DNA of 42,433 nt from a virus (lineage: Duplodnaviria; Caudoviricetes). The stretch spans positions 1 to 42,433 of IMG/VR virus record IMGVR_UViG_3300017647_000148; one strand, written 5' to 3'. The notes beneath the pieces were generated by a model. The model was not told where the DNA came from. It worked only from the letters and a program-made list of their open reading frames with translations, and made no database searches. The position numbers and the translations under genes are program-made. This document shows, piece by piece, positions 851-41,989 of this stretch. Positions within the stretch are counted from its first letter, which is position 1. Each line of letters begins with the position of its first letter.

Positions 851-999
851 GGGTCGATTCGCTGTGACCAAAACGTGTCCACAATACCCGAAAAATGGGC
901 GAAAATAATGGGAAAGCCGCCGCTGTTGAAGGGTTGGCTACACCTGCAAGTCATTGATGTAGCGGGGCTTTCCGACTTCATCTATTTATGGCCGCCCGT

Positions 1000-1044
1000 C
1001 TGTTAATCCGCAGGTCGCAGGTTCGAGCCCTGCTCGGGGAGCCA
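1000..1044 (+). pseudogene. 3' half of tRNA-Asn(GTT), the att core
   Basis: CTGTTAA anticodon loop, GCAGG-TTCGAGC-CCTGC T-arm, TCGGGGA-G-CCA end; no D-arm or 5' acceptor strand upstream. Confidence 0.85.
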
Positions 1045-1059
1045 AAATTGCTAAAGAAA

Positions 1060-2142
1060 TCAAGTGCTTGAAACCGCCTCCAGGGGCGGTTTTTCTTTTT
1101 GCGCGTCCGGCTGTGACCAAAACGTGACCGCGTTGGCATGGGTCGCCAGGTGGTCCGGCGCCAGGTGCGCGTACTTCAGCACCATCTCCAGTTTCTTCCA
1201 GCCGCCCAGCTCCTTGAGCACTAGCAGCGGCGTGCCGCTTTGCACGTGCCAAGAGGCCCAGGTGTGCCGGAAGTCATGAAAGTGGAAATCCTGGATCCCG
1301 ACCACGGCGCATGCCCTGGCGAGCACACGCCGGTCAACCTCCTGTATAGGGATGGCCTCGCGGTCAGGCACCGATGACCGAGTAAAAACCAGGGTCGGGT
1401 GTAGTCCGCGGCGCTGCCGCAGCACCTCCATCGCATCGGCATTGAGCGGCACGGCACGGGCCTTTTTTGATTTCGCGCCTGGCGCCGTGACGTAGGCGTG
1501 CCGCTTGGCCATATCGACCTGTGCCCATGTCAGCGATGTGATTTCACCCTGCCGCATGCCTGTGGCGACGGCAAAGAGGCTGAGCTCCTGCATCCAGCGC
1601 ACCGTCATGGCTTTGATCAGGCGCACGATCACCGGACGCGGCTCCCACCGAACCCGCGTTTCCGGCTCTTCGTGGGTGGTCAGCTTTGGGGCCTTCCTGA
1701 TCCATCCCCATTCGCCACACAATGACAGGATGCGGCCCATGGTGGCCACGTAGCGGTTGATCGTCGCGGGCGCGAGCGGGACCGCCGGCCGGCCGGAACG
1801 AAGTTTATGTGTGGGCGCCGCATCCATCACGTCGCCAGCGGTTAAAGAACGAACCGTCCGATTGCGGAACTGCTCGCGCCAATAGGCCACATGCCGCACC
1901 TTGTTGCGGTAGTCGCGTGCATTGGCGTACAGCTTCAGAAAGCGCAGAGCGGCCTCGTCGAAGGTCCGGTCCGGCTCTTCTCCCAATCTGTCCTGCCGCC
2001 ACAACTCGGCCTTCAGCCGGTCGTGGTACTCCTGCGCGGCTTGGCGGTCTTTCGTTCCAGTAGAGCGTCTAATTCTTTCGCCGCCTGGCGCGCGGAGGTC
2101 AAGCCGGTAAATGCCGGAGATTGGGTCTTTGCGGATTGGCAT
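1060..2142 (-). CDS. int: Tyrosine integrase
   Basis: TGMRQGEI, HDFRHTWASW, LGGW and YAHL catalytic motifs; adjacent to att. Confidence 0.95.
   Translation of the reverse strand: MPIRKDPISGIYRLDLRAPGGERIRRSTGTKDRQAAQEYHDRLKAELWRQDRLGEEPDRTFDEAALRFLKLYANARDYRNKVRHVAYWREQFRNRTVRSLTAGDVMDAAPTHKLRSGRPAVPLAPATINRYVATMGRILSLCGEWGWIRKAPKLTTHEEPETRVRWEPRPVIVRLIKAMTVRWMQELSLFAVATGMRQGEITSLTWAQVDMAKRHAYVTAPGAKSKKARAVPLNADAMEVLRQRRGLHPTLVFTRSSVPDREAIPIQEVDRRVLARACAVVGIQDFHFHDFRHTWASWHVQSGTPLLVLKELGGWKKLEMVLKYAHLAPDHLATHANAVTFWSQPDAQKEKPPLEAVSST
1071..1100 (+). terminator. Rho-independent terminator after the tRNA 3' half
   Basis: AACCGCCTC-CA-GGGGCGGTT hairpin followed by a T-tract; overlaps the integrase 3' end. 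Confidence 0.7.
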
Positions 2143-2348
2143 TCTCTGTCCTCGCCGACCCGCAGGTGTAGCCGGGTCACATTTGAGCGTTTTTCGGTCA
2201 GCTCAGCAAGTCGGGATGGCCATACCCGCCAGACGCGGGAGCCGGGCAGCCGGAAGCCGATCTGTTTGCGCTTGGCGAATACCGTGCTGTAGGCGAGGTG
2301 CAGCCGGTCGGCCGCCTCTTGAAGGGTGAGGGCGCGCTCGTCGATCAT
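2013..2348 (-). CDS. Excisionase-like HTH DNA-binding protein
   Basis: MIDERALTLQEAADRLHLAYSTV HTH; directly upstream of and overlapping int. Confidence 0.7.
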   Translation of the reverse strand: MIDERALTLQEAADRLHLAYSTVFAKRKQIGFRLPGSRVWRVWPSRLAELTEKRSNVTRLHLRVGEDRECQSAKTQSPAFTGLTSARQAAKELDALLERKTAKPRRSTTTG

Positions 2349-4129
2349 GCGACCCTCCTGAGTATCTGATCTTGGGGCGCGTTGGCCGCGATCAATGCAA
2401 TCGCCGGCGGAGGGCTGACGCTGTTGCCTACCATGTGCACCTGCTGGGATTTGGTGAAAACCCGGCCGTCGTGGCCGTGGCCGATGATGTAGTCCTTGGG
2501 GAAGCCCTGCAGGTCGTACAGCTCGGCCGGCGTGAGCATGCGCAGGCGGATGTCGACGACCACGTAGGGGTTGCCCTGGATGTAGACGGTGACCAGCGCC
2601 AAGCGGTCCTTGGTGGTCAAAGTGCTGGCCGGGTCGCGCAGGTCGCCCCACTGGCCGCCCTCGCCGTAGTAGCGCATCAGGAATGCTGCGACCTGAAGGG
2701 CACCGGCCTCATCGTCGGGCGACAGGTCGTACTCCAGTAGGCCATATCGGGCAGCGCCGGCCAGGATCGTCTGCGCGGGTTCGCGCAGGTCAGAGCCGAC
2801 TACGTTCTGGCTCATGGCGGTTAGGTGCGCCGTGATGAGCTGCTGCTGGCTGCCGCTGTTCGTGATGGTGGACGCCGCCCGGCGCAGATCGTGAGCCGGC
2901 GTGGCGTTGTAGCCCCCGTTGGCTTGCACCATGAATCCCATGGCCAGGGCATGCTTGATGCCGCCGGCGGTGACGGTCCCCAGCGGCTGCTGGTGATCGA
3001 GGCAGCGCGGGGCTTGGCCGTCTCGCTCGCCATAGCCGGCCTGGACCAGGACCGGCGCGATGACGGCGCTATCCCCCTTTCGGGTGATGGTGTAGTGCGG
3101 CTCACGGGCTGGCCTGGGCTCGCTCTGGCCAGCGCGGCCACCCACGCCCGCCAGCACCGGGGCGACCACGGCATGTGATCCGCCGCGCGGTTTCGCCGTG
3201 ACCGTGCTGATGGGTTGCCGCGTCGAATGCGAGGCGTCGCGGCTCCAGTTGGCGATGGGCACAATGAACGGATCCGCGGAATCCAGCAGATACCGTTTCA
3301 TGCCGCGGGCGATGCGCCGCATGGTGGCGTCGGCCAGCGGGCGAGGGCGGTTGAAAATGCTGCGCCCCTCGATGGTCCAGTCGATCCCGTCAGCAGCTGC
3401 GCGCCAGCGCTGCTGGCCCTTGGCCGGGTTCTTGAAGTGGGTGGCCTCGGGCCAGACGATGGGCTGGCCGTCTCGGCGGGCCATCATGAATAGGCGCGTG
3501 CGCGTGGTGCCGGCGCCGTAGTCGGCGGCATTCAGCTCCCGCCATTCGACGATGTACCCCATGCCGCGCAGGATGGTCACCAAGCGCCGCCAGTGTTTGC
3601 CCTGCTGCTTCGGGTCGGGCACCAGGTATTGGTCCTGCACACGCACGCGCTCGCCAGGCTCGGCCACGCTCCCGTCCAGCTTGACCACGCGGCCGGTGGC
3701 CCGGTCGCGCTTGGCGATCAGGCGGCCCCATTTCAGGATCTGGACGACGTTCTCCAGGCTGATGATGTCTGGCTTGACCGTGCCGGCCCAGCGGACAGTC
3801 ACCCAGGCCAGGGCCCGGATGTTCTTGCGCCGCGGCTGGCCGCCCTTGGCCTGGCTGTGGTCGGTGCAGTCGGGCGACAGGTGCAGCCAGCCTACGGGGC
3901 GACCGTCCGCGATTCGATACGGACAAACCTCCCACACGTCGGAGATGTGATGCCTCGTCTGCGGGTGATTCACGGCGTGCATGCTCAAGGCATTGGCGTC
4001 GTGATTAATGGAGTCGTGGACGTGTTGGCCGGTGGCTATCTCGTAGGCAGTCGACCAACCTCCGCCGCCGGCGAAGATGTCCACGACCAGCTTGGCGGGC
4101 AGGCCCAGGACGAGTTGCGGGGTCAGCAT
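2345..4129 (-). CDS. C5 DNA cytosine methyltransferase (orphan)
   Basis: DIFAGGGG, SPDC, ENV, RTRLF and GNSV motifs; likely start MLTPQL at 4129. Confidence 0.92.
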   Translation of the reverse strand: MLTPQLVLGLPAKLVVDIFAGGGGWSTAYEIATGQHVHDSINHDANALSMHAVNHPQTRHHISDVWEVCPYRIADGRPVGWLHLSPDCTDHSQAKGGQPRRKNIRALAWVTVRWAGTVKPDIISLENVVQILKWGRLIAKRDRATGRVVKLDGSVAEPGERVRVQDQYLVPDPKQQGKHWRRLVTILRGMGYIVEWRELNAADYGAGTTRTRLFMMARRDGQPIVWPEATHFKNPAKGQQRWRAAADGIDWTIEGRSIFNRPRPLADATMRRIARGMKRYLLDSADPFIVPIANWSRDASHSTRQPISTVTAKPRGGSHAVVAPVLAGVGGRAGQSEPRPAREPHYTITRKGDSAVIAPVLVQAGYGERDGQAPRCLDHQQPLGTVTAGGIKHALAMGFMVQANGGYNATPAHDLRRAASTITNSGSQQQLITAHLTAMSQNVVGSDLREPAQTILAGAARYGLLEYDLSPDDEAGALQVAAFLMRYYGEGGQWGDLRDPASTLTTKDRLALVTVYIQGNPYVVVDIRLRMLTPAELYDLQGFPKDYIIGHGHDGRVFTKSQQVHMVGNSVSPPPAIALIAANAPQDQILRRVA

Positions 4130-4293
4130 TACACCTCTCCGCCGCTCGGTTGCCTCGCAGCCAGCGCGGCCGTGACTTCCGTCTTCAGCTCCGTCAGCAG
4201 ACGGCCGGCGCGCACCGGGTCGCGAGGACTCGACTCCAGCGCCTCGGCGATCTTGGCGAACAGGGTATTGATCTTCTCTTGGGCATACGTCAT
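4129..4293 (-). CDS. Small hypothetical protein
   Basis: MTYAQEK start overlaps the upstream stop; fills the gap in a tightly packed operon. Confidence 0.55.
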   Translation of the reverse strand: MTYAQEKINTLFAKIAEALESSPRDPVRAGRLLTELKTEVTAALAARQPSGGEV

Positions 4294-4730
4294 GGCTGCT
4301 CTCCAATGCGGCGAGCGGCGACCATCGCCACCGCCAGTTGTTCGGATAGGAAAAGCCGCGACATGTCGATGCGCGGCAGGATGTCGTCGATGGCGCTGAC
4401 GGCCAGGGCCAGCGACGCGGTTTCGTGATCGCGCAGCGCCAGCCCGGCTTCGCACTTCGAGCCGATCTGGATCATGGTCCTCGCGCCGCCCGCGATCAGT
4501 GCGGCCTCACGGCTTACCTTGGCGTCGTCACTGATCGCGAGGCTGACCATGTTGAAGATGCCGGCGAGCGCGTCGAAAGCTTCGGCATTGGGTGCCAGCC
4601 GCAATGCGGCCAGGGCGCCGTGCATGTGCGTAGCGATCAGATCGCGCAGGCCTGCGGTGATGGGTATCCTCACCAAGCGCTTGCGGTAGGCCTTGCGGCG
4701 GGGTGGGCGGGCGCGGGACATGGCTGTCAC
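4290..4730 (-). CDS. Phage hypothetical protein
   Basis: 146 aa; 4-nt overlaps with both neighbours. Confidence 0.65.
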   Translation of the reverse strand: MTAMSRARPPRRKAYRKRLVRIPITAGLRDLIATHMHGALAALRLAPNAEAFDALAGIFNMVSLAISDDAKVSREAALIAGGARTMIQIGSKCEAGLALRDHETASLALAVSAIDDILPRIDMSRLFLSEQLAVAMVAARRIGEQP

Positions 4731-4981
4731 TCGGTCGCAGCGCCCGATACGATTCGGATCAGGTCCGGCTTGCTGGCGTGGCGCTGCAGCTTGCCGCGCA
4801 GCTCCAGGTAGCGGATCGCGCGCTCGACAATCTCGCGGTCGGTAGTCCAGGACCTGGGGCGGGTGGTGTCCAACCAGTGCTGGCCACCGCTCATCGTGGG
4901 CGTGCAGTAGGCGCCCAAGTCCATGGCGGCCGCCTCGTCGGCGATGTCCGCCATCAGGGCGTGAAGTTCATCATCGGGCAT
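4727..4981 (-). CDS. Hypothetical protein
   Basis: 84 aa; GGAGG Shine-Dalgarno inside the RT 3' end. Confidence 0.65.
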   Translation of the reverse strand: MPDDELHALMADIADEAAAMDLGAYCTPTMSGGQHWLDTTRPRSWTTDREIVERAIRYLELRGKLQRHASKPDLIRIVSGAATE

Positions 4982-6068
4982 GGTGGCCTCCTACGATCTT
5001 GGTAAAGGTTCCGGTCACGGTGCAGCCGCGATAGCGCAGCGCCTTGGCCAGACGTGCGCGGTCCTTGTGGCTGTGCGACGCCTGGCTGAGCAGCCCGAAA
5101 TAGCTGTTGGCGCGTGAGGCGATATCGGCGGTGGGCATCGCCTCGATGCGGTCGAGGGCAGCGCCGGCTGTGCGGCGACGGGGGATGCGGCGCCAGGGCT
5201 TGATGACCTGGCCTACGAAGTCGATTCCACGGGCGACCGGCTGGATAATCGTCTTGTGTGGGTTGAGCCGCGCGCCGAGGCGCTCCGGCAGGAACGTGTT
5301 GATGTCGCGCAGGGCCGCGCTGAGCCACGCGGGCGACTCGTGCAGCAGCACGAAGTCATCCACGTAGCGGCAGTAGAATCGCGCCCTGATCTGATGCTTG
5401 GCGTGTTGGTCCAGGGCGTCGAGGTGGACGTTGGCAAAGAATTGGCTGCTGAGGTTGCCGATGGGCAGCCCGGTGTCCGATGGGGCGTTGAATAGGCTCT
5501 TGTGGCGCGGCACCAGACCCAGCAGTTTCGGGCTCGTCCTTACATCCACGTCCTCGCGCGGATCGTGGAAGAGGATTGTGGCGGTCAGCGCCAGCCACCA
5601 GGGTTCGGTAACCCGGTGCGCCAGCTGGTCGAAAAGGATGCGCTTGTCTATCGCCACGAAGAAGTTGGCGAGGTCGCATTTCAGGTACCAGGCAGGACGC
5701 GTCCAGCCGTGCGTGACGCGGCGGGCGTGGCGTTCCACGCGCTGGGCGGCGTACAGCGTGCCGCGCCCCGGGATGCAGGCGCAGCTGTCCGCCACGAAGG
5801 CGCGGTGGAACCGCTCGGCGATTTGGTTGTACAGAAGGTGATGAACCACGCGGTCGCGAAAGTCCGCCGCCCACACCTCGCGAGGCTTGGGGTGGGTGAC
5901 CACGAAGCAAATCGAGCGCCCAGGGCGATACGCGCCACTGATGAGCTCGTCGTAGAGGCTGCAAAGGTTGTGCTCCATGTGGCGCTCGAACGCGATGGCG
6001 CTCGCGCTGTTACGCTTGGAGCGCCGGCAATCGAGGTAGGCTGTGACCAGGTCCTCGAAGGCCGGCAT
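4971..6068 (-). CDS. DGR reverse transcriptase
   Basis: KPREV-AADFRDRVVHH, YLKCDLANFF, GLPIGNLSSQFFAN (DGR-type GxxxSQ), RYVDDF and GIDFVG; flanked by TR and avd; start may lie upstream at 6353. Confidence 0.95.
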   Translation of the reverse strand: MPAFEDLVTAYLDCRRSKRNSASAIAFERHMEHNLCSLYDELISGAYRPGRSICFVVTHPKPREVWAADFRDRVVHHLLYNQIAERFHRAFVADSCACIPGRGTLYAAQRVERHARRVTHGWTRPAWYLKCDLANFFVAIDKRILFDQLAHRVTEPWWLALTATILFHDPREDVDVRTSPKLLGLVPRHKSLFNAPSDTGLPIGNLSSQFFANVHLDALDQHAKHQIRARFYCRYVDDFVLLHESPAWLSAALRDINTFLPERLGARLNPHKTIIQPVARGIDFVGQVIKPWRRIPRRRTAGAALDRIEAMPTADIASRANSYFGLLSQASHSHKDRARLAKALRYRGCTVTGTFTKIVGGHHAR

Positions 6069-6073
6069 CGTTG

Positions 6074-6177
6074 AATCTGCGGACAGCACGGGCCCGGTAC
6101 TCGTTGTCCTTGTCGTTGATGTTCTGGTTGCCATCGTCGAAGTTCTGGATCCAGGCGTTGTTGGCGGAGTACTGCGT
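6074..6177 (-). repeat. DGR template repeat (TR), 104 bp
   Basis: Ungapped match to 6755-6858 and 10940-11043, with mismatches only at TR adenines; 7 AAC codons in the VR frame (TQYSANNAWIQNFDDGNQNINDKDNEYRARAVRR). Confidence 0.97.
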
Positions 6178-6349
6178 CGCATCGCGCTATTCACGCCGGC
6201 CGGGCGAAGGCGAGAGCCGATCACCTGGGCGGCTGCACGGGACCGATGCCAGCCGCGGCTGGTGGTATCCCTGGCGTGCTTGACGGTGGCCTTGTGGGCC
6301 AGCGGCGCGACCAGATTCAAGAGGCGTACGGGCATGATCGCCATGACGG
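6178..6349 (-). ncRNA. Putative structured 5' part of the DGR RNA (avd-TR spacer)
   Basis: Several stems on the sense strand: TGGCC-CACAA-GGCCA, palindrome CCAGCCGCGGCTGG enclosed by GGGA..TCCC, AGCCG..CGGCT. Confidence 0.5.
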
Positions 6350-6709
6350 TCATGCGGCAGACGCGGTTCGTGCGGAGTGGCGGCGCCAGCCACCGACCTG
6401 CTGGCCGACTCGGTCGCACAAGCGAGCCACGCGCGCGTACTGCTTGGGCGCGATGTACTTCTTGTTGAGGGCGAGCCGGAGCAGGAACGCCATGACATCC
6501 TTGCGCTCCAGCAGCTCGTCCAGGTACGGGACCTTGTCGCGGGCAGCGTTGGCCCGGCCGATCAGGACCAGAATCTCGATGCACTCGTCGTTGATGCGAC
6601 CGCCGAAGGAGCGGGCGAAGTGACGAGGCATGTTGAGCGTCAGGTCCGATACGGTGTCGAGCAGGTCGCAAGCCAGCTTGTAGACGGGCAGGTCGGTGTG
6701 GAGTGCCAT
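6350..6709 (-). CDS. avd: DGR accessory variability determinant (four-helix bundle)
   Basis: 119 aa, basic and helical; LPVYK, MPR, LLRLA and VGQQVGGW motifs; lies between target and TR. Confidence 0.88.
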   Translation of the reverse strand: MALHTDLPVYKLACDLLDTVSDLTLNMPRHFARSFGGRINDECIEILVLIGRANAARDKVPYLDELLERKDVMAFLLRLALNKKYIAPKQYARVARLCDRVGQQVGGWRRHSARTASAA

Positions 6710-6716
6710 GGCGTCA

Positions 6717-6754
6717 AGGCGCTGCGCGCCGAATGGTCAAAGGGTCAAATGATC
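6717..6754 (-). other. IMH region and downstream DNA hairpin of VR1
   Basis: After the shared CGCAGATT the VR diverges from TR: GATCA-TTTGACCC-TTTGACCA-TTC, then GGCGC-GCA-GCGCC hairpin. Confidence 0.55.
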
Positions 6755-7350
6755 AATCTGCGGACAGCACGGGCCCGGTACTCGCCGTCCTTGGCGCCGA
6801 TGCCCTGGTAGCCATCGCCGAAGCTCTGGACCCAGGCGTTGTTGGCGGAGCACTGCGTGCTGCTCCAGTACCAGCCGGGCTCGAAGAGCTCGGGGACGTT
6901 GGTCCACATCAGGCGCAGTTCGCGGCGCGAGGGCAGATAGAAGTCGTTGTGGCCGTCGATGTCGAGGCCATAGGCCCATTCGGCGGCGGGGTGATCGCGG
7001 CCATCGCTGTAAAGGGCAAAGGTATTGGCTCGACCGTCCCATTCGCACTTCGCGCCCTCGATATCCCGGCCGCGAGGGCCCCAGGTGATGCCGTCGGTGT
7101 ACGCAGCCGGGTCGGCGGGGACGATCAGGTGATAGTCGGGCTTGCCGTCGTGGCCGCGCATGATGCCGGCGTACACACCGCCCTGGCCGGGCCAGGGCTG
7201 GCCGATCCGGGGTGCCGTGGTGACGCGTACCTTGACGGCCGACTGCCCCGGGTCTTGGGCAACCTGGCCGAGAAGCTGGGACAACAGACGCGTGGCCGTG
7301 GTCTCGGGAATCTCGACCTCGGTCGAGTGGCGAACTTGAATCATGGACAT
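6745..7350 (-). CDS. DGR target 1, DUF1566/Lcl C-type-lectin-like protein
   Basis: DFYLPSRRELRL, YWSSTQ, AW and RARAVRR motifs; C-terminal VR. Confidence 0.9.
   Translation of the reverse strand: MSMIQVRHSTEVEIPETTATRLLSQLLGQVAQDPGQSAVKVRVTTAPRIGQPWPGQGGVYAGIMRGHDGKPDYHLIVPADPAAYTDGITWGPRGRDIEGAKCEWDGRANTFALYSDGRDHPAAEWAYGLDIDGHNDFYLPSRRELRLMWTNVPELFEPGWYWSSTQCSANNAWVQSFGDGYQGIGAKDGEYRARAVRRLII
6755..6858 (-). repeat. Variable region VR1
   Basis: 12 mismatches to TR, all at TR A (10 A>G, 1 A>C, 1 A>T). Confidence 0.97.
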
Positions 7351-7399
7351 GAGGGCTCCTAGTGGCGGCGCACCGCCAGGCGTAAAAGAGGGGGAGAGG

Positions 7400-8257
7400 T
7401 CAGCGGACGTTGACGAATGGCAGGGCGGCGCCAGGGATCATCGTGGCCGGCAGCTTGCCGTCCCAGCGTTCCACGGCGTTCAGGTTGACCAGGTTGGTGT
7501 TGGCAGCCAGCGCCTCGGCGCGGGCGCGGATGGCTTCGGCCTCGGCGGCTCCCCGCAACTTGATGCCGTCAGCCTCGGCCGTGAACCGCTCGCGTTGCGC
7601 ATCGGCCTCGGCCTTCGCCTTCACGACCTGGATTTCGGCGTTGATCGTGGCGGTCTCTTTCTGCTGGCGGGTGGTCTCGATCTGCACCTGGGCCAGCATC
7701 CGCTGCTCGATGGACTGCTCGTAGGCCTGGGAGAACCCCACCTCTTCGATCTGCACGCCCACGATGGTCACGGGCGCGTCGCCCATGGCGTTGCGGACCG
7801 ACGCATTCACATCGATGCCCAGCTTTTCCCGCTCCTGGATGGCGCGCACGGCGGTAAATTTGCCGAAGACGTTCTTGACGGCATCGAAGGTGCGCCGTTC
7901 CAGGATGCGCGCCTGCAGGTTCGCGAGGCTCCCGTACTCGGAGTACAGCTCGGCGACCCGCTCGGCAGGGATGCGGTAGGTGACCGATACGCGCAGCGTT
8001 GCGGGCTGCTGGTCGAAGCTGTAGGCTTCCAACTGGTCGAAGGCGAAAGTATGATCGCGCACCGAGATCTCCTGGACGCTCTCGATGAAGGGCGTCTTGA
8101 AGCCGAGGCCTGGGTCGGCCACGCGTACGATCTTGCCGTTGCGTAGCACGACACCCCGCTCGCCCTGGTCGATCTGGTAAAAGGACCCGAAGGCGCAGAA
8201 GATCAGCAACAGGAAGGTGACGACGGCGGTGGTGAGATAGAAGACGGCCTTGTTCAT
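7400..8257 (-). CDS. SPFH/prohibitin/Band 7 membrane protein
   Basis: N-terminal TM segment, GERGVVLRNG, PGLGFKTPF, coiled-coil AEADA repeats, WDGKLP. Confidence 0.9.
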   Translation of the reverse strand: MNKAVFYLTTAVVTFLLLIFCAFGSFYQIDQGERGVVLRNGKIVRVADPGLGFKTPFIESVQEISVRDHTFAFDQLEAYSFDQQPATLRVSVTYRIPAERVAELYSEYGSLANLQARILERRTFDAVKNVFGKFTAVRAIQEREKLGIDVNASVRNAMGDAPVTIVGVQIEEVGFSQAYEQSIEQRMLAQVQIETTRQQKETATINAEIQVVKAKAEADAQRERFTAEADGIKLRGAAEAEAIRARAEALAANTNLVNLNAVERWDGKLPATMIPGAALPFVNVR

Positions 8258-8367
8258 TTCTTGGTTCTCCGTGGTTGACGCGATTGCTGGGCAATGAAGG
8301 CTCGAATGCCCAGGGTGATGAGGTAGGCGACGACAGCGGCGCCTATGAGGATCAGGGTCATGCGCAT
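8254..8367 (-). CDS. Small single-TM protein
   Basis: MRMTLILIGAAVVAYLITLGIRAF; GGAG SD; stop overlaps the SPFH start. Confidence 0.5.
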   Translation of the reverse strand: MRMTLILIGAAVVAYLITLGIRAFIAQQSRQPRRTKK

Positions 8368-8384
8368 GACGGTCTCCGAGGTGG

Positions 8385-9506
8385 CTAGACGGCGTTCTTG
8401 GGGAAGGGCCATTCCTCGGGGGTGGCGATGACTGGCTTGGGCCGCTCGTGCTCGATGGCCTTGTCCGGGTCGCACTCGCGCCAATCGGGCCAGCTGCGGG
8501 ACTCGTTGTGGACCTGCTTGTCGCGCAGCGCTTGGGCGACCTGTTCCGCGGTGGCGCCGGTGCGCCATGCGCCGTCCAGCGCGAGCAGGGCGACGTCGAT
8601 CCATTCGGTAGGGCTCTCGGGCTGCTCCAGGATCTCGATCAGTTCCTTGCGGATGTGATCGACGATGCCCTGGGTGCGCGCGCCAGGGCCGAAGGTCTCG
8701 GCGGAGAACTCCATCTGCCGCTTGAGGTGCTTCACCAGGTCATAGCTGCGCAGGGCCTCGTCGGCTTTGGGCGGCCGGGCCTGGGCGATGTGCTTGGCCG
8801 TGGCACGGGTCTTGCCGGCCTTGGCGGCGATCTGGACGGCGTCGGCCAGTACCGCGGCGGTCTGGGTGCCGTGCTGCTTGAGCGCTTTGCGCGCCTCCGT
8901 GGCGGAGACCTTGCCGCTGCGCACCAGATCCCGGACTTCACGCGGCGATCCGATGAGGTCCAGCAGCTCGCCCACGTAATTGACGGCCTTGAAGTTGAGC
9001 CGCTTGGCGATGGTCGCGTCGTCCAGGCCCATGGACTGCAGGCGCTTGCACACCACGGCAATCTCCAGCGGCGTGAGCGGCTTGCCTGTGTTGCCGGTCA
9101 CCAGGGCGACCGTGAGGTCTTCCAGATTCGTGCCTCGCGGCTTGATCACCACTGGCAGGACGGTGCCCTCGTAGCCTTCTTCCACCGCCAGGTCAAAAGC
9201 AGCAAGGCGGCAGTGGCCGTCGGTCAGGCAAATCTCTTCCCTGCCTTCGTCGTTCTTGGCGACGAAGCCGACCAGCGGCTTGTCGTAAAAGAAACCGTCG
9301 GCCTTGATCGAGTCGGCTATCCAGCGGACGTGCGCCTTGGTCGTGTCGTCCTCGGGGTCGCGTACGTTGAAGCCCGGCATGACGACGATGTGCTGCCGGG
9401 GCACTTTCCAGAGGTCGGCGGAAATCGCGCCGGCGGCGGCCATCGCGGCTTTGACGTTGCCGTTGACCAACTGGCGGTCGAACTGCGTAGGCAGGGTAGT
9501 GGTCAT
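8385..9506 (-). CDS. ParB-like domain fused to DUF550-like dATP/dGTP pyrophosphohydrolase domain
   Basis: N-terminal GFNVR, DGHCRL and HTH; C-terminal FSAETFGP, HIRKELIE, EWIDV and N-xx-RSWPDWR. Confidence 0.8.
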   Translation of the reverse strand: MTTTLPTQFDRQLVNGNVKAAMAAAGAISADLWKVPRQHIVVMPGFNVRDPEDDTTKAHVRWIADSIKADGFFYDKPLVGFVAKNDEGREEICLTDGHCRLAAFDLAVEEGYEGTVLPVVIKPRGTNLEDLTVALVTGNTGKPLTPLEIAVVCKRLQSMGLDDATIAKRLNFKAVNYVGELLDLIGSPREVRDLVRSGKVSATEARKALKQHGTQTAAVLADAVQIAAKAGKTRATAKHIAQARPPKADEALRSYDLVKHLKRQMEFSAETFGPGARTQGIVDHIRKELIEILEQPESPTEWIDVALLALDGAWRTGATAEQVAQALRDKQVHNESRSWPDWRECDPDKAIEHERPKPVIATPEEWPFPKNAV

Positions 9507-9514
9507 GATCGAGG

Positions 9515-9706
9515 TCAGTCCTGGACGTTGCTGCAGATGTTGATCAGGCGCGGCTGGAACTGCGCACGCGCGGCGGCCTGGCGCATCAGCGCAGACAGGC
9601 GGTACTCCCGGCCGGTGCTCGCGATCTGACGCGGGGTAGCAACGGCGGGAATGGAGTAGTCCGGCGCGGCAGCCGGCTTAGGGGTGCGGGGCTTTGGCAT
9701 GGTCAT
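9515..9706 (-). CDS. Small hypothetical protein
   Basis: GAGG SD before MTMPKPR; fills an operon gap. Confidence 0.4.
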   Translation of the reverse strand: MTMPKPRTPKPAAAPDYSIPAVATPRQIASTGREYRLSALMRQAAARAQFQPRLINICSNVQD

Positions 9707-10373
9707 CCTCACGGAGGCGGGATGCGACGGCGTCGCGGAATGCCACCAGGGCGTCGTAAACGAGGGCGCTAGTGGTGGAGTCGTTGTGCAGGGTGCGGTC
9801 GGCCGGAATGTCGCCAACCCCCAGTTCGCTGACATGGTTGGCGCTGGCTTCGTCGGCCAGCTGGCGGCGGATGCGCCAGACCTCGCCGCCCAGCCCCTTG
9901 ATGAAGGCCGCCTCGTTCAAGAAACGGACATCGGTGATCACGATGCGGCGCCAGCCATCGCGGTGCAGCTGCTCAATGGTCTCGTGCGCGCGGTACAGCC
10001 AGTAGTCCTGGCCGTCCTGCCAGCGCCGGTACTCGGTGCCCCACCAGCGCATCGCCCACCGAGGGCTGATGGCTTTGTCGTAAGGCACACCGAGCCGACC
10101 CATCAGCTCGACAAATCGGGCGTCGTTGCAGCGCGATAGCGCCAGCGCGGGCGTGGGCGCTTCCTTCTGGCTTCGGTCTGTGAAAAGGCGCAGATCAACG
10201 CCGTAGGCTGCGACCAGCTCGCGACGCACGGCGTCGGCAAAGGCGAAGGGATGGAACGCATGCGCGTCGGCCAGGATGTTGGCGCAGGTATCCTTGCCTG
10301 CGCCGGCCCGGCCGGCCATGCCGACGATGAGATACGGGCCCGTGCGGGCCTTCGCGGGGATGGTCGCTGTCAT
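9678..10373 (-). CDS. Deoxynucleoside monophosphate kinase-like P-loop protein
   Basis: GRAGAGKDT, AFADAVR, WGTEYRR, ITDVRFLNEA and HVSE motifs. Confidence 0.85.
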   Translation of the reverse strand: MTATIPAKARTGPYLIVGMAGRAGAGKDTCANILADAHAFHPFAFADAVRRELVAAYGVDLRLFTDRSQKEAPTPALALSRCNDARFVELMGRLGVPYDKAISPRWAMRWWGTEYRRWQDGQDYWLYRAHETIEQLHRDGWRRIVITDVRFLNEAAFIKGLGGEVWRIRRQLADEASANHVSELGVGDIPADRTLHNDSTTSALVYDALVAFRDAVASRLREDDHAKAPHP

Positions 10374-10600
10374 TGGTCGAGGTCGGTGTCGAAGTCGCCG
10401 GCCGCTGCGCGGCGGGCGTCAAACTTAGTTTTGAGAGGGCGAGTGGCGCGATGGGCCTCGGCCAGCGCGAGGGCAGTGTTGGTCAGCGCGATGCGCAGGG
10501 CGATGCCGACGGGGCTGGCCAGGATCGTGTCCAGGTCCCCGTGGCAGCGGGCCGCGCGCATCGCGCTTTCCAGTTGCTGGCGGCTGACTTCGGCTCGCAT
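10370..10600 (-). CDS. Hypothetical protein
   Basis: 76 aa ending FDARRAAAGD; 4-nt overlap with the kinase gene. Confidence 0.65.
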   Translation of the reverse strand: MRAEVSRQQLESAMRAARCHGDLDTILASPVGIALRIALTNTALALAEAHRATRPLKTKFDARRAAAGDFDTDLDQ

Positions 10601-10609
10601 CGCCGCCGC

Positions 10610-10888
10610 CTAGCGCTGGACCGTCAGCAATGGGGCGTCGCTGACGTGCTGCATGAGCAGGGCGCCGTCCGGATTGACGTAGACGCACGCATAGCGGCCT
10701 GTCTGCGGCTCGTGCCAGAGCTCGCCCTGCGAGCCGCAAGCCCGCGCGATCATGCGCGTACGTCGCTCGTCTTCGGCCTTGAACAGCCGGGCGTCGTTGC
10801 CGGCGACGTGGAGGCCGTACGCGAAGATCGCGGCCGGGACGAGGGCGGCGGCAACAACCACCGCCGAGTTGCTGAGAATCCGCTTCAT
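10610..10888 (-). CDS. Small membrane-anchored hypothetical protein
   Basis: Hydrophobic N-terminus, two Cys, GGAG SD. Confidence 0.65.
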   Translation of the reverse strand: MKRILSNSAVVVAAALVPAAIFAYGLHVAGNDARLFKAEDERRTRMIARACGSQGELWHEPQTGRYACVYVNPDGALLMQHVSDAPLLTVQR

Positions 10889-10926
10889 GGGGCTCTCCCG
10901 TGCTTGCCTAGGGGTGAATGGCCGAA

Positions 10927-11412
10927 TTACTCAATGACCAATCTGCGGACAGCACGGGCCCGGTACTCGCCGCCCTTGTCGTCGATGTCCTGGGTGCCAT
11001 CGCCGAAGCCCTGGAACCAGGCGGTGTGGGCGGAGTACTGCGTGCTGCTCCAGTACCAGTCTTTCTGGAAGAGGTGGGGGACCGTGGCCCAGCACAGCGC
11101 CAGTTCACGCTGGGCCGGCAGGTACCAGTCGCCGCGGCCATCGACCTCGGTGGTCGCGACCTTGTCGGCAGCGGGGTGCTCCGGGGCGGCCGCGTTCAGC
11201 GCCTGCGTGTTGGCCTTGCCGTCCCAGGTTGACGACGCCCCGGTCTGGCGCTTGCCGTAGCCGCCCCAGGCGAGGTTGCTGAAATCGCCTTCCTCGCCGG
11301 AGACGATCAGGTGGTACAGGGTGCCGTCGTCGCCGCGCATGATGCCGGCGTAGGTGCCGCCCTGCTCGGGCCAGAGTTCGCCGACACGCGGCGGGGTGGG
11401 GATGGTGGTCAA
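10927..11412 (-). CDS. DGR target 2 (distal), DUF1566-like protein
   Basis: Paralogue of target 1 (QGG-YAGIMRG-DG, WDG-ANT, HPAA, YLP-xx-REL, WYWSSTQ); TTG start with GGAG SD. Confidence 0.9.
   Translation of the reverse strand: MTTIPTPPRVGELWPEQGGTYAGIMRGDDGTLYHLIVSGEEGDFSNLAWGGYGKRQTGASSTWDGKANTQALNAAAPEHPAADKVATTEVDGRGDWYLPAQRELALCWATVPHLFQKDWYWSSTQYSAHTAWFQGFGDGTQDIDDKGGEYRARAVRRLVIE
10940..11043 (-). repeat. Variable region VR2
   Basis: 12 mismatches to TR, all at TR A (8 A>G, 3 A>C, 1 A>T). Confidence 0.97.
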
Positions 11413-11452
11413 GGTGGTCTCCCGTAGTGGCCCGGAATGGGCTTGCGGGAGA

Positions 11453-11495
11453 ATGCTAGCGCAGCGCTAATCTCTATGTCAATAGCGCAGCGCTA
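11453..11495 (-). promoter_or_regulatory. PL-like promoter with two repressor operators
   Basis: TTGACA (11482-11477), 18 bp, TAGCAT (11458-11453); palindromes TAGCGCAGCGCTA at 11457-11469 and 11483-11495. Confidence 0.85.
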
Positions 11496-11516
11496 ATCTT
11501 TTGACTTGAGGAAGTC

Positions 11517-11885
11517 CTAGTATGCGATCGTGATGCTCACGCGGGGATGTTCAAGGTCGTCAGGTGCCCAGAAGCTAGCTACTGTGCTGGCAATTTCAGT
11601 GCCATCGTCCATGATCGGAGCGAGCCGCTTTGCAAGCGTGCGGTCAATGTACCCAATCTGCACTTCAGTCTTAAAAACCCACGCAACCCGCGCTAGGAGA
11701 TATACGCCGATGGCATTGCTATCGTGGGGGTTGGTGGGCTCCCTTTTGAGGATAATCTTCGCCCCATTGCGGCAGTATCGTCGAATCAGGCCGGCGCGCG
11801 GGATTCCGTTGCTATTTCTAAATCCGGTTCCTACGATGATTGTGTTTCGGCGCTGCTTCATTTGGGCCTCTATGGTCGCCGTCAT
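11517..11885 (-). CDS. HIRAN domain protein
   Basis: IVGTGFRN, LKREPTNPHDSNAIGV and IGYI motifs; lower GC. Confidence 0.85.
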   Translation of the reverse strand: MTATIEAQMKQRRNTIIVGTGFRNSNGIPRAGLIRRYCRNGAKIILKREPTNPHDSNAIGVYLLARVAWVFKTEVQIGYIDRTLAKRLAPIMDDGTEIASTVASFWAPDDLEHPRVSITIAY

Positions 11886-12023
11886 GCAGACGAATCTTGT
11901 TTCTCAAGAATCATCATGTTACTGGAGGGAAAAATTTTTTTGATGCGGATGGAAGCCAAATAATCCGCCCGTCATCGGAACGAAGAAGATGGGAATACTT
12001 AGGCACACTGTCGTCCGATCCGG

Positions 12024-12431
12024 CTATGCCGCTTTGCCATTCTGGTTGCCAGGTTTCGGCTGGGCCTTTTTTGCATCGAGCCTCTCCAATTCGCTATCAA
12101 TTTTCCCTTCTAGGAAGCTCAAATCGTCGGGACTCAACGAGGTAATGCGTTCGCGACTAATCCGACCGAACGGCCAAATGTTCTTCTCCAGATCTGGGTC
12201 CGTGTCCATCCAGCCGCGCGGCTTGTTGAGTGCTGATTCAAGAGCTCGCGCCATGGGAGACCCCATCTCTTTCGGCTTACCAGTTTTACTGCCGGCTGAT
12301 CGGTTCAATATCTGGCTGTACGTTGAGTCGCGATCAACCTTGCCAGTAGCACGATTCAACTCGGCAGCGGACCCAACTTCTGCAATAAGTTGCTTGAGCC
12401 GCACAAGGCGGACCTCTTCCACGGTTTTCAT
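12024..12431 (-). CDS. CI-like repressor (135 aa, no S24 peptidase domain)
   Basis: MKTVEEVRLVRLKQL, SQIL, MG-xx-MARALE and PRGWMD HTH signature; divergent from cro. Confidence 0.85.
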   Translation of the reverse strand: MKTVEEVRLVRLKQLIAEVGSAAELNRATGKVDRDSTYSQILNRSAGSKTGKPKEMGSPMARALESALNKPRGWMDTDPDLEKNIWPFGRISRERITSLSPDDLSFLEGKIDSELERLDAKKAQPKPGNQNGKAA

Positions 12432-12444
12432 GTTGATAATTTGA

Positions 12445-12511
12445 TAGCGCTCCGCTAATTGTGTGGCGTAGCGCAGCGCTGTTGACGATTCAATTAGCGC
12501 TGCGCTAAGAT
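12445..12511. promoter_or_regulatory. OR region: three operators and PR
   Basis: TAGCGCTCCGCTA 12445-57, TAGCGCAGCGCTG 12469-81, TAGCGCTGCGCTA 12495-507; TTGACG (12482), 18 bp, TAAGAT (12506). Confidence 0.85.
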
Positions 12512-12517
12512 TGCGAC

Positions 12518-12793
12518 ATGCGCCTATCCGACCTCTATCCCACGTTGACCCCGCCCGAGCGCGCGACCCTTGCACGGCGGGCGGGAACTGACGCGGGCTA
12601 CCTCTGGCAGCTAGCAACTCGTTGGCGAGGGAAGCGGGCAAGCCTGAAGATGATCCAACGTTTGTGCTCAGCGGACGCCCGTCTGACGGTCGTTGACTTG
12701 GTGAGCGAATTTGCAGAGCCGAGCAGTGAGCGCGCGGACGGCAATGGCGCAGACGTTTGTAAATCTCTCGGCCAGGAGTTCCCCAATGCTTAA
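12518..12793 (+). CDS. Cro-like repressor
   Basis: LARRAGTDAGYLWQLA HTH; first gene from PR. Confidence 0.8.
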   Translation: MRLSDLYPTLTPPERATLARRAGTDAGYLWQLATRWRGKRASLKMIQRLCSADARLTVVDLVSEFAEPSSERADGNGADVCKSLGQEFPNA

Positions 12794-13001
12794 GTGGCTT
12801 CGCAACCTCATGCGCCCGTCGGTGGATGTGACGGTCACCAACCTGACGCCCGATGATTTGGAAATATCCGTCGAGCGAGATAGTGCGGGGGTTCGCATCA
12901 TTGTGTCTCGTCGGGAAACCGCGCAGATGAGATTGCGCAGAGAACAACGCGTGCGAGCCATTGTTCATCAGGAAGTCGCCCTCGCGCGTAGGAGGAAGTG
13001 A
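12786..13001 (+). CDS. Hypothetical protein
   Basis: MLKWLRNL start with AGGAG SD; overlaps cro end. Confidence 0.5.
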   Translation: MLKWLRNLMRPSVDVTVTNLTPDDLEISVERDSAGVRIIVSRRETAQMRLRREQRVRAIVHQEVALARRRK

Positions 13002-13258
13002 TGGCGCACTCAATCGCCGACCAAGTGGCGCGTCGAGCACAGGCCTGGGCGCTGGCTGCCGGCTCGACCTTGAAGATTCGCGGCCGCATATCCCCAACCA
13101 TGATGGCGATACGTGGAAGCCAACGAACGGCAGAGCAGCAAGCCTTGCTGGCTGCTGCCTGCGAGTTGTTCGATCTGCTGCGATCAACTCCCGAGGGTCG
13201 GCAGGCCCTTGCTGATCTCGGCCTTGAGCCACTCCCTGAGCAGCGAAAAGCTGAATGA
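13001..13258 (+). CDS. Hypothetical protein
   Basis: AGGAGG SD; coupled to the previous stop. Confidence 0.5.
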   Translation: MAHSIADQVARRAQAWALAAGSTLKIRGRISPTMMAIRGSQRTAEQQALLAAACELFDLLRSTPEGRQALADLGLEPLPEQRKAE

Positions 13259-13546
13259 AGCTGAGGGCTTGATGACACTCTCTTTCGCCTTTCTCCACAG
13301 CGTATCGCTTCGTATCTGGTCGGCGAATTCCTGGCCGTCCCATGTAAGGCGCCGGATGGCCATCTCGGTTCCGGCGTCGCCATACTCGGTCACGGTGGCG
13401 TCTACCAGCCCGGCTTCCTGCATGAGCACCACGTGTTCGGAGAAGACGGTAGTGTCTACCCCGTCTATTTCTTCCAGCCACTTCCCGGGTGGCAATTCCG
13501 TTGCCGCGAGCGTGATGCGGCGCACGATGTCCATATCGCGTTTCAT
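13184..13546 (-). CDS. DUF2513-like winged-helix protein, antisense moron
   Basis: MKRDMDIVRRI, HV-LM-EAGLV and RLTWDGQEFADQIRSDTLW. Confidence 0.8.
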   Translation of the reverse strand: MKRDMDIVRRITLAATELPPGKWLEEIDGVDTTVFSEHVVLMQEAGLVDATVTEYGDAGTEMAIRRLTWDGQEFADQIRSDTLWRKAKESVIKPSASFSFSLLREWLKAEISKGLPTLGS

Positions 13547-13711
13547 GGTCAGCCCCTCCTCGAAGGGTTTCGTGTGTGAGAGCCGAAATCATAGTAGGTT
13601 GGGGCTGACCTCCCATTTCAAATCCTTTGTGCAGTGCGGAAACAGGCCTGCATCGTATGGCCGCGGGATCCCGCCGTCCACGAGAATCGCCGGCCATTTT
13701 CGGGAGGCACG

Positions 13712-14266
13712 ATGACCAAGCGTTACGCCGAGACCCATTGGAGGGGCGCCCTGTACAACGCGTTGCGGGCGGCGCCCGATGGCGTGGCAGGCTTCTGCGC
13801 CTGGGCGGCCGAGTTCCGGGACCGCCGCATCGCGCCCAAGACGCTCTACAAGCGGCTGGACGGGTCCGACCCGGCCGAGCGCATGACCGTCGAGGACGCC
13901 GAGCTCATCACGGAGTACCTGAAGCGGCATTGCGCGACGCGGGACCGTTCGCGCTCCTGGATCGTCGCGCTGGCCGCCGCGCACGACCTGGCTGCCATCG
14001 AGCTGGACGCTCCGCCGCCGGCAGGCGGCTGGCCGTGCGAACTCACGGCCATCATGGAGAAGGGGTTCACGCTGTCCGAGCAGGGCGGGATTCTGTCGGG
14101 CATGCTGGCCGGCGCACTGCGTGACCGCCATATCACGATGCGCGAGGCCGAAGAGATTCGCGGGCAGTGCCATGCCGAGATTCGGCTACTTCTGCGCCTG
14201 ATGCGCAATGTGGAGCGGGCGGCCGAGCAGGGCGCAACGCTGGCCTCCCTCGGGAGCGAGGAATGA
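13712..14266 (+). CDS. Phage CII-family regulator
   Basis: ALYNALR, GVAGF, TLYKRL and ALRDRHIT-xx-EAEEI pattern; position after cro. Confidence 0.65.
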   Translation: MTKRYAETHWRGALYNALRAAPDGVAGFCAWAAEFRDRRIAPKTLYKRLDGSDPAERMTVEDAELITEYLKRHCATRDRSRSWIVALAAAHDLAAIELDAPPPAGGWPCELTAIMEKGFTLSEQGGILSGMLAGALRDRHITMREAEEIRGQCHAEIRLLLRLMRNVERAAEQGATLASLGSEE

Positions 14267-14526
14267 AGGCCGGGCGCAAGTCAAGGGGCCGGCCATTGGG
14301 CCCCGTCGCGCGTGCCGTCCTGGAGGTCCTGGGTGACGATGCGCTGACCGCGCGGCAGATCGGCGTACTGCTGTGCTTGTCGCACGTCGCGGCGAAGAAG
14401 ACATGCAGCCGTCTGGCGAGCTATGGCCTTCTGAGGGTGGTTGAGCGTGTCCCGGTCAGCGGCGCACACAAGCCCGTCGCTCGGTACACGTGCGCCACCA
14501 CGCCTGAGTCTGCTTCGCTGCAATGA
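14263..14526 (+). CDS. Small winged-HTH protein
   Basis: LTARQIGVLL...CSRLASYGLLRVV; ATGA-coupled to cII. Confidence 0.6.
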   Translation: MKAGRKSRGRPLGPVARAVLEVLGDDALTARQIGVLLCLSHVAAKKTCSRLASYGLLRVVERVPVSGAHKPVARYTCATTPESASLQ

Positions 14527-14589
14527 CGAATTCGCATCAACCTGCATGGCGGCATAGCGACCGCCAGGCCCAACCGTCGGCGGTGGCCT

Positions 14590-17023: not shown

Positions 17024-17283
17024 CGTCCAACCCGAAAAGGTTGGGCAGAAGGTTGGACGGCTGAAGACCCGCATAAACACTGGGTTTGTCCAACCGTCCA
17101 ACCTGTCCAACCTAGTTTCTACGCATGCACGGGCGCGCACGCACGCGAGACGTGCGCAATGTTGCGGGATTCCACTTTGAAACTGGAATTCAGGTTGGAC
17201 AGGTTGGACGGTTGGACAAAGCTAGGAAAGACGCGGCTTCTGAGGCGTCCAACCCCTGTCCAACCTTGAGCGAGGTTGGACGG
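17024..17283. repeat. Putative replication origin with GTCCAACC iterons
   Basis: Perfect 29-bp inverted repeat 17085-17113/17192-17220, each arm with three GTCCAACC units; further copies on both sides. Confidence 0.7.
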
Positions 17284-17985: not shown

Positions 17986-18061
17986 GGTGGGGTAGCGCAG
18001 TTGGCAGCGCGTCGGGCCCATAACCCGAAGGTCGCAGGTTCGAATCCTGCCCCCGCAACCA
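17986..18061 (+). tRNA. tRNA-Met(CAT), initiator-like and atypical
   Basis: 76-nt cloverleaf: GGTGGGG / GCGC D-stem / TCGGG-CCCATAA-CCCGA / GCAGG-TTCGAAT-CCTGC / CCCCGCA-A-CCA. Confidence 0.85.
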
Positions 18062-25040: not shown

Positions 25041-25474
25041 CAAACTCGACGTTCCTGGCCGCGCCCTGGGCAGATGTGCTCTATGCGATGGACCGGGACT
25101 GGTGGGGGAAATACGTCGAACAGGCCCGGCGTCAGTTTGCCGGAGAGCTGGTGTGTCCCCTGATGAATTGCCATGGCGTGCGTCACGCCAAATTCGACCA
25201 CGGGTCGAACTCCGGCGCCGGCGCGATATCGCTGGCAGCCCATACGGGCGCCCGGCGCATCGTACTGGTGGGCTACGACTGCCAGCTGACGGGCGGGCGG
25301 TCGCATTGGCATGGCGACCATCCGAAGGGCCTGGGCAACGCCGGCTCGCTGCCGCAGTGGGCCGCCCAGTTTGGCAGTCTTGCGCGGCGGCTACGCGGCA
25401 TCGAGGTCATCAACTGCAGCCGGGAGACGGCGCTGACGTGCTTCCCGCGGGCGGCACTGGAGGACGTTCTGTGA
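24911..25474 (+). CDS. Glycosyltransferase/MptE-like Rossmann-fold protein (N-terminus lacks a start codon)
   Basis: Frame opens after TGA at 24910: TVVCLASGPSL, VTNST, ADVLYAMD, NSGAGAISLA, IVLVGYDC, HWHGDH, VINCS. Confidence 0.7.
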   Translation, partial: SQRPFAGRWQTVVCLASGPSLTPADCAAVRAWREGGPGRGVFVTNSTFLAAPWADVLYAMDRDWWGKYVEQARRQFAGELVCPLMNCHGVRHAKFDHGSNSGAGAISLAAHTGARRIVLVGYDCQLTGGRSHWHGDHPKGLGNAGSLPQWAAQFGSLARRLRGIEVINCSRETALTCFPRAALEDVL

Positions 25475-26370: not shown

Positions 26371-26947
26371 GATCGGCATCGGGTACTACCCGGTGCGGCC
26401 GCAGGATATGCCATACGACGATGGCTACTTCGAGCGCTACCAGCGCCAGGCCGACACCGCCATCGGCCGTGCGCTGACCGAGGCGCGTGCAGCTCTGGTC
26501 GCCCGCCACTACGCCGGGTGGCTGCTCGACGTGGGCATTGGTTGCGGGCAGTTCGTCCAGGCGCGCCCGCAGACCTGCGGCTACGACATCAACCCGGCGG
26601 GCGTACGCTGGCTGCGCGAGCGCGGCCTGTACATGGATCTGTACGGGCAGAGCTACCCGGCGCTCACGTTCTGGGACAGCCTGGAGCATATCCCGGATCC
26701 GGCGGCAGCCGTGGCCCGGGCGCGGGAATGGGTGTTTGTGTCGCTGCCCATCTATGAATCGGCCGAGCATGTGCTGCGCAGCAAGCACTTCCGGCGAGAC
26801 GAGCATATCTGGTACCACACCGACGCAGGTCTACGGCGCTGGTTCGAGTTGCAGGGGTTCGCCTGCGTCGAATGCAATGCGGCAGAGACCACCATCGGGC
26901 GCGAGGGTATCGGCAGCTACGCATTCCGGAGAGTGCAATGTCCGTAA
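26294..26947 (+). CDS. Class I SAM-dependent methyltransferase
   Basis: YDDGYF, LLDVGIGCGQF, GYDIN, FWDSLEHIPDP and EHIWY; start uncertain. Confidence 0.85.
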   Translation: MSISAPGWTDKAFSAWASSGLVWLPEIGIGYYPVRPQDMPYDDGYFERYQRQADTAIGRALTEARAALVARHYAGWLLDVGIGCGQFVQARPQTCGYDINPAGVRWLRERGLYMDLYGQSYPALTFWDSLEHIPDPAAAVARAREWVFVSLPIYESAEHVLRSKHFRRDEHIWYHTDAGLRRWFELQGFACVECNAAETTIGREGIGSYAFRRVQCP

Positions 26948-36269: not shown

Positions 36270-36291
36270 GCGCACACCACTTTGACCAATC

Positions 36292-36319
36292 GCCCCGCCT
36301 TCGAGCGGGGCTTTTTATT
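36292..36319 (+). terminator. Rho-independent terminator
   Basis: GCCCCGC-CTTCGA-GCGGGGC followed by TTTTT. Confidence 0.75.
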
Positions 36320-41987: not shown

Positions 41988-41989
41988 CG

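Follow-up and report, generated by a model that had tools for sequence, protein, structure and literature searches.

A diversity-generating retroelement with two small CLec-fold targets in the leftward early arm of a lambdoid phage genome

The retroelement and its two targets

The virus record IMGVR_UViG_3300017647_000148 (the window, meaning the whole 42,433-nt stretch that was analysed; completeness estimate 86%) runs in lambdoid order from the integrase through the leftward early arm, the repressor, and the rightward replication genes to the terminase, portal, capsid, tail, and lysis genes; its leftward arm carries a diversity-generating retroelement (DGR). In a DGR, the reverse transcriptase (RT) and the accessory protein Avd copy the RNA of a template repeat (TR), making errors at its adenines, and the resulting cDNA takes the place of a variable repeat (VR). 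The role usually given to phage DGRs is that of a tropism switch in the tail fibre. An earlier note made from the sequence alone had proposed that this one diversifies two early, non-virion proteins of the DUF1566 family. The cassette and its targets comprise the following features.

4971..6068, minus strand: DGR reverse transcriptase, intact, 365 aa, with YVDD at residue 235 (PF00078; phrog_1423, E 2e-112)
6074..6177, minus strand: TR, 104 nt with 31 adenines, largely AAC/GAC codons (from the three-copy 104-nt repeat)
6175..6366, minus strand: RT-15 structured RNA, forming the spacer between avd and TR in the DGR RNA (Rfam RF03018)
6350..6709, minus strand: avd accessory gene, 119 aa (PF22296; phrog_3206)
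6745..7350, minus strand: target 1, 201 aa, a beta-beta-alpha N-terminal piece, a flexible linker, and a CLec (Lcl_C) domain (PF07603)
6755..6858, minus strand: VR1, 12 A-to-N substitutions (comparison with the TR)
10927..11412, minus strand: target 2, 161 aa, no other domain besides CLec (Lcl_C); its gene comes first behind a PL-like promoter (PF07603)
10940..11043, minus strand: VR2, 12 A-to-N substitutions, 4,866 bp from the TR (comparison with the TR)

On the minus strand, the cassette reads target 1, avd, RT-15 RNA, TR, RT. The complete arrangement given in the earlier note is borne out, as is its remote second target about 4.8 kb from the TR. The spacer of that description is the RT-15 RNA, matched over its full length (166 bits against a cut-off of 82, E 3e-40). 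The avd product also matches model NF033474, under that model's cut-off. The RT starts at ATG 6068 and is 60-66% identical to the RTs of phages Cruim01, Magia, QDWS, and Haboob. A 566-aa open reading frame (ORF) at 4971-6671 reads across avd, the RT-15 RNA, and the TR and was therefore discounted as the RT gene. Alignment of the TR with the two VRs confirmed that all 24 substitutions (12 per 104-nt VR) lie opposite TR adenines, that 73 of 73 non-A positions are unchanged in both VRs, and that the two substitution patterns are unlike each other. The 3' end of the VRs is GC-rich and invariant, with VR and TR diverging beyond it, as might be expected at initiation-of-mutagenic-homing sites (IMH/IMH*). 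Only weak DNA hairpins follow the VRs (-6.6 and -3.2 kcal/mol); stem-loops are likewise weak or absent in some of the members listed in the relevant part of Wu 2018 (PMC5758913). No further TR-like site was found on either strand of the window, where the next best site matches 56% of non-A positions. With A-only differences between TR and VRs, a YxDD-bearing RT, avd, and a structured RNA, the intact cassette is a DGR.

The element has been active recently, which we regard as close to certain. ENA proteins P0010 and P0254, which originate in other assemblies than the window, equal target 1 and target 2, respectively, outside the VR (start residue aside) and differ at 7 and 10 VR residues, and 17 of 17 of these changes are obtainable from the window TR by A-to-N change. 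A relative in runs X3 and X5, both of one other study, has 47-53 differing sites over 1.5-1.9 kb, some of them clustered in the VR; opposite TR adenines lie 14 of the 15 differences listed in VR1 coordinates and 9 of the 10 listed for VR2. No VR variants were seen in the contigs of runs X1 and X2, which probably represent the sample that the window came from, and contigs lose rare variants. One X3 contig of a close relative fuses position 5006 to 7345, which removes precisely target1-avd-TR-RT and keeps target 2, so that this relative, on the strength of a single contig, seems to have lost the cassette. In the Pseudomonas phages Aurca01 and Medea1, the targets agree with 69-73 of the 73 non-A sites of the Cruim01 TR, and no RT of the clade of the window RT was found in the fetched stretch or among the top RT matches. 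Because of the X3 contig and these two phages, we consider that the cassette is occasionally lost while the targets are retained. Such losses speak for the cassette being a neutral passenger or an inactive relic, the latter an outcome that the earlier note had named as refuting its reading. Against this stand the VR-only, TR-reachable differences between near-identical phages, the intact state of all the ORFs, the lack of non-A drift between TR and VRs, and strong selection on VR codons (see below); moreover, the target genes outlast the cassette. We give the relic explanation almost no weight.

Both targets score over the Pfam cut-off for Lcl_C/DUF1566 (PF07603), and confident AlphaFold models (pLDDT 92 for target 1 and 95.8 for target 2) agree with the proposed DUF1566/CLec identity. 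The N-terminal extra of target 1 is a 30-residue beta-beta-alpha piece on a flexible linker. In the models, the VR makes up the last five strands and their loops. Target 2 superposes on the C-terminal domain of Legionella Lcl (8q4e) with Z 14.3 and a root-mean-square deviation of 2.3 over 117 aligned residues, and on a Bacteroides pilin with Z 13.0. The nearest named homologue of the targets is from Achromobacter pestifer (68-77%). NCBIfam has no informative family for the targets, and the ESM Atlas matches of target 2 are DUF1566 clusters without a name only. A simple Kyte-Doolittle and regular-expression test, not SignalP, upheld the lack of a signal peptide or transmembrane segment: the best 19-residue hydropathy windows reach 0.34 and 0.49, neither target has a lipobox, and none of 120 homologues has a hydrophobic segment or a lipobox by this test.

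Position and predicted control in the early arm

Target 2 follows directly on a candidate promoter, and the arm that follows is bounded by a repressor gene and the integrase.

11453..11495, minus strand: PL-like promoter TTGACA-18-TAGCAT with two palindromic operator-like repeats (consensus match, putative function)
12024..12431, start approximate, minus strand: CI-like repressor (phrog_12107, E 9e-16)
12445..12511, plus strand: OR-like triplet of the operator repeat around a PR-like promoter at 12482-12511 (pattern match)
1060..2142, minus strand: integrase, which closes the leftward early arm (PF00589)

The leftward sigma-70-like site spans 11482-11453, and the repeats at 11457-11469 and 11483-11495 overlap and flank it. 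The underlying 13-bp palindrome occurs five times in the window, giving 10 strand matches where 0.32 would be expected; two of the sites lie at the leftward and three at the rightward promoter, on either side of the CI-like gene and nowhere else. These matches predict an OL/OR-like layout in which target 2 is the first ORF behind a PL-like promoter. Because the arm has no other promoter-like site, target 1, avd, the TR, and the RT are probably driven by the same promoter and would likewise be off in the lysogen.

The position recurs in related genomes. RT and target scans, the second of which contributed the best 80 of 569 matches, yielded 109 IMG/VR loci; scanning viral contigs with target 1 as a single protein gave no matches, the loci coming from alignment and RT scans. 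A near-complete RT is present in 94 of the 109, and with four cultured phages the set numbers 98 loci, of which 93 have at least one VR and 87 at least two. Over 206 VR segments, mismatches number 2,693 at A against 81 elsewhere, under a scoring that favours A mismatches and with some loci redundant. GTDB genomes with an RT of this clade (21 loci) include Cupriavidus, Polaromonas, Janthinobacterium, Duganella, and Castellaniella. Among the 94 IMG/VR loci, a repressor homologue is found in 48, upstream and on the same strand in 47, and an integrase in 46, downstream of the DGR in every one; where both are present, the DGR lies between them (25/25). The 170 largest neighbour clusters were sampled through 48 representatives chosen by hand, and the families so identified among the shared neighbours are repressors, single-stranded DNA-binding protein, RecT/ERF/YqaJ, methylases, dNMP kinase, and one lysis-type peptidase; no virion family was found among the 48 scanned.

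The place of target 2 directly behind PL, together with that of Magia gp57 and of the target of one IMG/VR locus (L060) at the start of the arm, could suit a sensor or regulator of the lysis-lysogeny decision that binds a host regulator, a protease, or a metabolite. In lambda, the corresponding gene slot is occupied by N, cIII, or kil. Against a sensor, the position inside the arm varies, with targets 0.8-9 kb from the repressor across loci, a close homologue occurs in a lytic jumbo phage, and a conserved regulator hardly explains hypervariation. We consider a regulatory role quite improbable.

Virion adhesins or intracellular binders

In the BPP-1 type of DGR (mtd-avd-TR-brt), the VR lies in a tail-fibre or receptor-binding gene of the late module. 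The window shares with BPP-1 the same components and an A-specific C-terminal VR in a CLec fold, and its RT is 30% identical; BPP-1 differs in having a single tail-borne target that switches tropism, whereas the window has two small early-arm targets. The tail genes (33363-39409) show no TR likeness, as the earlier note had stated: the A-masked local score is 10 and 9 on the two strands against a maximum of 73, in line with 15 shuffles that range over 9-18. The whole late region (19154-41325) is also at shuffle level, with scores of 13 and 11, and thus holds no BPP-1-type target.

Several lines of evidence place the targets outside the virion. First, a homologue in jumbo phage PA5oct, EST35_0104 (gp104), offers a proteomic proxy. 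The VR-bearing target of Haboob and a D3 gene each share 81% identity with it, and the three form a group with 97% support in a quick target tree, many of whose forks are open and of which we use this group only. The part of the PA5oct report that describes its gene blocks (PMC7318152) assigns gp34-gp105, the block holding gp104, mostly to early, non-structural genes, and EST35_0104 is absent from the 93-protein virion list in that paper's supplement, which follows locus order and passes from 0051 to 0123. Second, the target family spans tail types: TipJ-type in the window phage, sheath and baseplate in Magia and QDWS, and the jumbo phage PA5oct. Third, in relatives the same domain is fused to cytoplasmic enzymes, namely an exoribonuclease (P0164) and a DHH/DHHA1 phosphoesterase that is in frame with a CLec target bearing a VR (L075:8237-9820), and, by a weak match, to a beta-clamp-like domain (P0161); these few fusions stand among longer homologues that are mostly multi-domain surface- or tail-like proteins. 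The promoter/operator layout, the position between repressor and integrase, the lack of an anchor, and the PA5oct proxy together make the earlier description of the targets as early and non-virion well supported, and we hold it to be probable.

Alternatively, the targets may be detachable virion adhesins or decoration proteins that tune attachment in the manner of BPP-1 Mtd while being encoded outside the late operon. Their structural neighbours are adhesins, and Baykov 2023 proposes a virion role for the short tgt2 proteins of gut phages, at least in the section on these proteins (PMC10743442); the portion of the Roux 2021 supplementary note on target functions also leaves room for structural roles (PMC8144416). 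In addition, one locus (L040:7444-9375), with an RT 48% identical, encodes a 643-aa tail-fibre-like DGR target tipped by the same CLec subfamily, and may link tail and early-arm DGRs. The early-arm position in all 25 informative loci, the bare and anchorless domain of target 2, the early PA5oct homologue that is missing from the virion list, the spread of the family over unrelated tail types, and the phage's own tail fibre gene (phrog_4201) all count against virion adhesins, which we consider unlikely.

The VRs themselves carry traces of selection. Codons were compared over up to 196 distinct VRs, excluding segments with more than three non-A mismatches and locus L051, where the TR contains only 15-17 adenines and departs from its three VRs at 10-12 non-A positions, a state that could result from overwriting or decay of the template itself. 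Mutable codons of the scaffold are retained almost without exception (CAG 448/449, GAG 137/139); the AAC codon is retained in 189 of 1582 cases, that is, changed in 88%. At AAY codons, Tyr is observed 335 times (221 expected), Gly 256 (144), Cys 12 (116), and Arg 21 (54). Over the variable codons, Tyr, Gly, Leu, and Thr are over-represented, and Cys, Ala, Pro, and Arg are under-represented. The pattern suggests that selection maintains a folded protein whose surface is paratope-like. The CLec fold, with the Lcl C-terminal domain as nearest solved structure, would also suit soluble lectins that are freed at lysis and bind lipopolysaccharide or exopolysaccharide as decoys or biofilm modifiers. 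The genes are placed early rather than late, an export signal is absent, and the depletion of Arg with enrichment of Tyr and Gly at variable codons seems to fit protein ligands better, so that released lectins appear very improbable.

Other phages are a further source of fast-changing ligands. During lytic growth, the targets might bind the repressors, replication proteins, or defence proteins of resident prophages and co-infecting phages, or they might exclude superinfection in the lysogen, and such genes are shared, with 81% identity, by the temperate D3 and the lytic PA5oct, which infect one host. Competing phages had been named as possible opponents in the earlier note. Their exclusion in the lysogen is made less likely by the PL-type promoter, operator-flanked and repressor-controlled, from which the genes would be read, and the targets have no membrane anchor. 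Action on other phages is doubtful, in our estimate.

We lean, by a narrow preference, towards two small soluble CLec proteins that are expressed from an early promoter and bind variable host cytoplasmic proteins, most plausibly components of defence systems, in place of a receptor on the cell surface. The intracellular hypervariable binder of the earlier note is a reasonable inference. Of its parts, a host cytoplasmic protein as ligand has slightly better than even prospects, and a defence protein specifically is a more tentative assignment. A ligand that rewards early intracellular variation would perhaps most plausibly be a strain-variable host protein, for example a defence component, a view that we hold with some reserve. 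In the proposed mechanism, the whole arm, RT included, would be silent in the lysogen, and mutagenesis would be tied to infection or induction, when firing of PL would yield both binders plus the mutator. RT and Avd would rewrite either VR from the single TR, the variable hairpin presumably acting as an antibody-like protein-binding patch, and progeny would carry new binding patches to be selected in the next host. If the ligand is a strain-variable host protein, each burst would therefore hold a small binder library. Extended to a widespread clade of proteobacterial temperate phages, the conjecture is that a PL-coupled DGR makes a binder library against strain-specific defence proteins of hosts and prophages, which we put forward tentatively. 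It would amount to somatically diversified counter-defence rather than a tropism switch.

Several observations weigh against this interpretation. The promoters and operators are pattern matches only; sigma-70-like sites in 900-15000 number 2 against 2.1 expected by chance, and the unusual feature is the pairing of promoters with operators. The best solved structural matches of the targets are surface adhesins (Lcl, the Bacteroides pilin, and Bd2740), and many viral Foldseek matches are long tail- or collagen-type proteins. Since these matches and the L040 target are tail-like, the CLec fold alone does not locate the protein in the cell; the L040 target sits behind a tape-measure-like gene, as an exception among the loci. 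PADLOC, whose models cover defence proteins, has no match for either target. PA5oct gp104 is just 34-35% identical to the window targets and comes from an RT-less phage, and small proteins can escape mass spectrometry. An internal Met is preserved in the enzyme fusions, which may have arisen recently by read-through. Finally, the codon biases could partly reflect a context bias of the RT, in loci that are related and partly redundant.

The family is already in print, short targets, remote targets, and the label 'non-structural/unknown' included (Wu 2018, Roux 2021, and the 2021 Magia paper), and the window locus itself is not unique. What the window adds is a clear operator-flanked promoter immediately before a target gene, naturally occurring VR alleles that are matched, and the proteomic proxy. 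As excerpted, the Wu 2018 CLec2/DUF1566 (d1) B1 DGRs resemble it in their order TG-(TG)-AVD-TR-RT (TG, target gene) and in short DUF1566-only targets with a C-terminal VR; they come from Ralstonia, Burkholderia, and Pseudomonas, have non-adjacent targets 3-10 kb off, and, in the Ralstonia CMR15 entry, one adjacent target too (PMC5758913). The passages on this group assign no function and do not mention a repressor or PL context (PMC5758913). For Roux 2021, the likeness is to clade 3/PC_00009: five of six related loci looked up fall in RT cluster REF_DGR_[t046]NC_016002.1 in the consulted tables (PMC8144416), these loci having RTs 59-67% identical to that of the window, which may belong there too. 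According to the same tables, the cluster holds 790 sequences, mostly viral and from Proteobacteria, and PC_00009 is classed as 'non-structural/unknown', with the difference that it also includes membrane-bound cellular targets such as Legionella's (PMC8144416). This large clade diversifies small proteins instead of tail fibres.

The DGR of Magia (NC_070954; PMC7883833) is alike in its RT (63% identical) and in having short targets with a lectin fold; these, avd, and the RT are flanked by repressor and integrase, and a remote target opens the arm 7 kb upstream. Magia differs in having three VRs, against two in the window, and a myovirus tail. Gafford-Gaby 2021 named this DGR and its short targets gp47 and gp57, and suggested adaptation or host range as its role, leaving early intracellular action undiscussed (PMC7883833). 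The tgt2 proteins of gut myophages nd4 and nd12 (Baykov 2023, PMC10743442), in the section that treats them, are likewise short single-CLec second targets without an Mtd anchor; they differ in belonging to the DUF6273 family and accompanying a virion target, and the authors favour receptor binding for them. A literature search confined to journals outside subscription found no paper testing such targets and no anti-defence proposal. If the targets bind defence proteins inside the cell, phages would possess a form of adaptive counter-immunity, and any VR could be used as it stands to probe for its target in the host. The question is directly testable because cultured carriers exist: Haboob, Cruim01, QDWS, Magia, and the RT-less D3 and PA5oct.

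Other genes and sites of the window

Within the leftward arm, 8385-9506 (minus strand) encodes a ParB-like protein with a fused dATP/dGTP pyrophosphohydrolase domain (PF04447); the gene adjoins a dNMP kinase (PF21448) and lies upstream of a C5 methylase. Behind the repressor, 11517-11885 (minus strand) is a stand-alone HIRAN gene with a weak match to PADLOC model PDC-M03B (E 7e-5), and a DUF2513 gene at 13184-13546 (minus strand) is set against the rightward operon; the two are possible accessory genes expressed in the lysogen. On the rightward side, a 63-nt inverted repeat (17051-17254) lies 3' of the primase/VapE gene, and a tRNA-Met (17986-18061) precedes the packaging genes.

In the head operon, directly after the major capsid gene, 25076-26947 carries a sialyltransferase-like gene (phrog_4603), a methyltransferase (phrog_6564), and a phrog_6804 gene of unknown function, possibly a glycosyltransferase; these three may serve virion modification. 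A phrog_1599 gene of unknown function stands at both window termini (1-624 and 41833-42433); the two copies are related, with 94% identity across 300 nt and about 70% beyond. Beside the integrase, 1004-1044 resembles the 3' half of a tRNA, as an att-like site would. The terminal copies and this site may reflect a tandem prophage or an assembly overlap.

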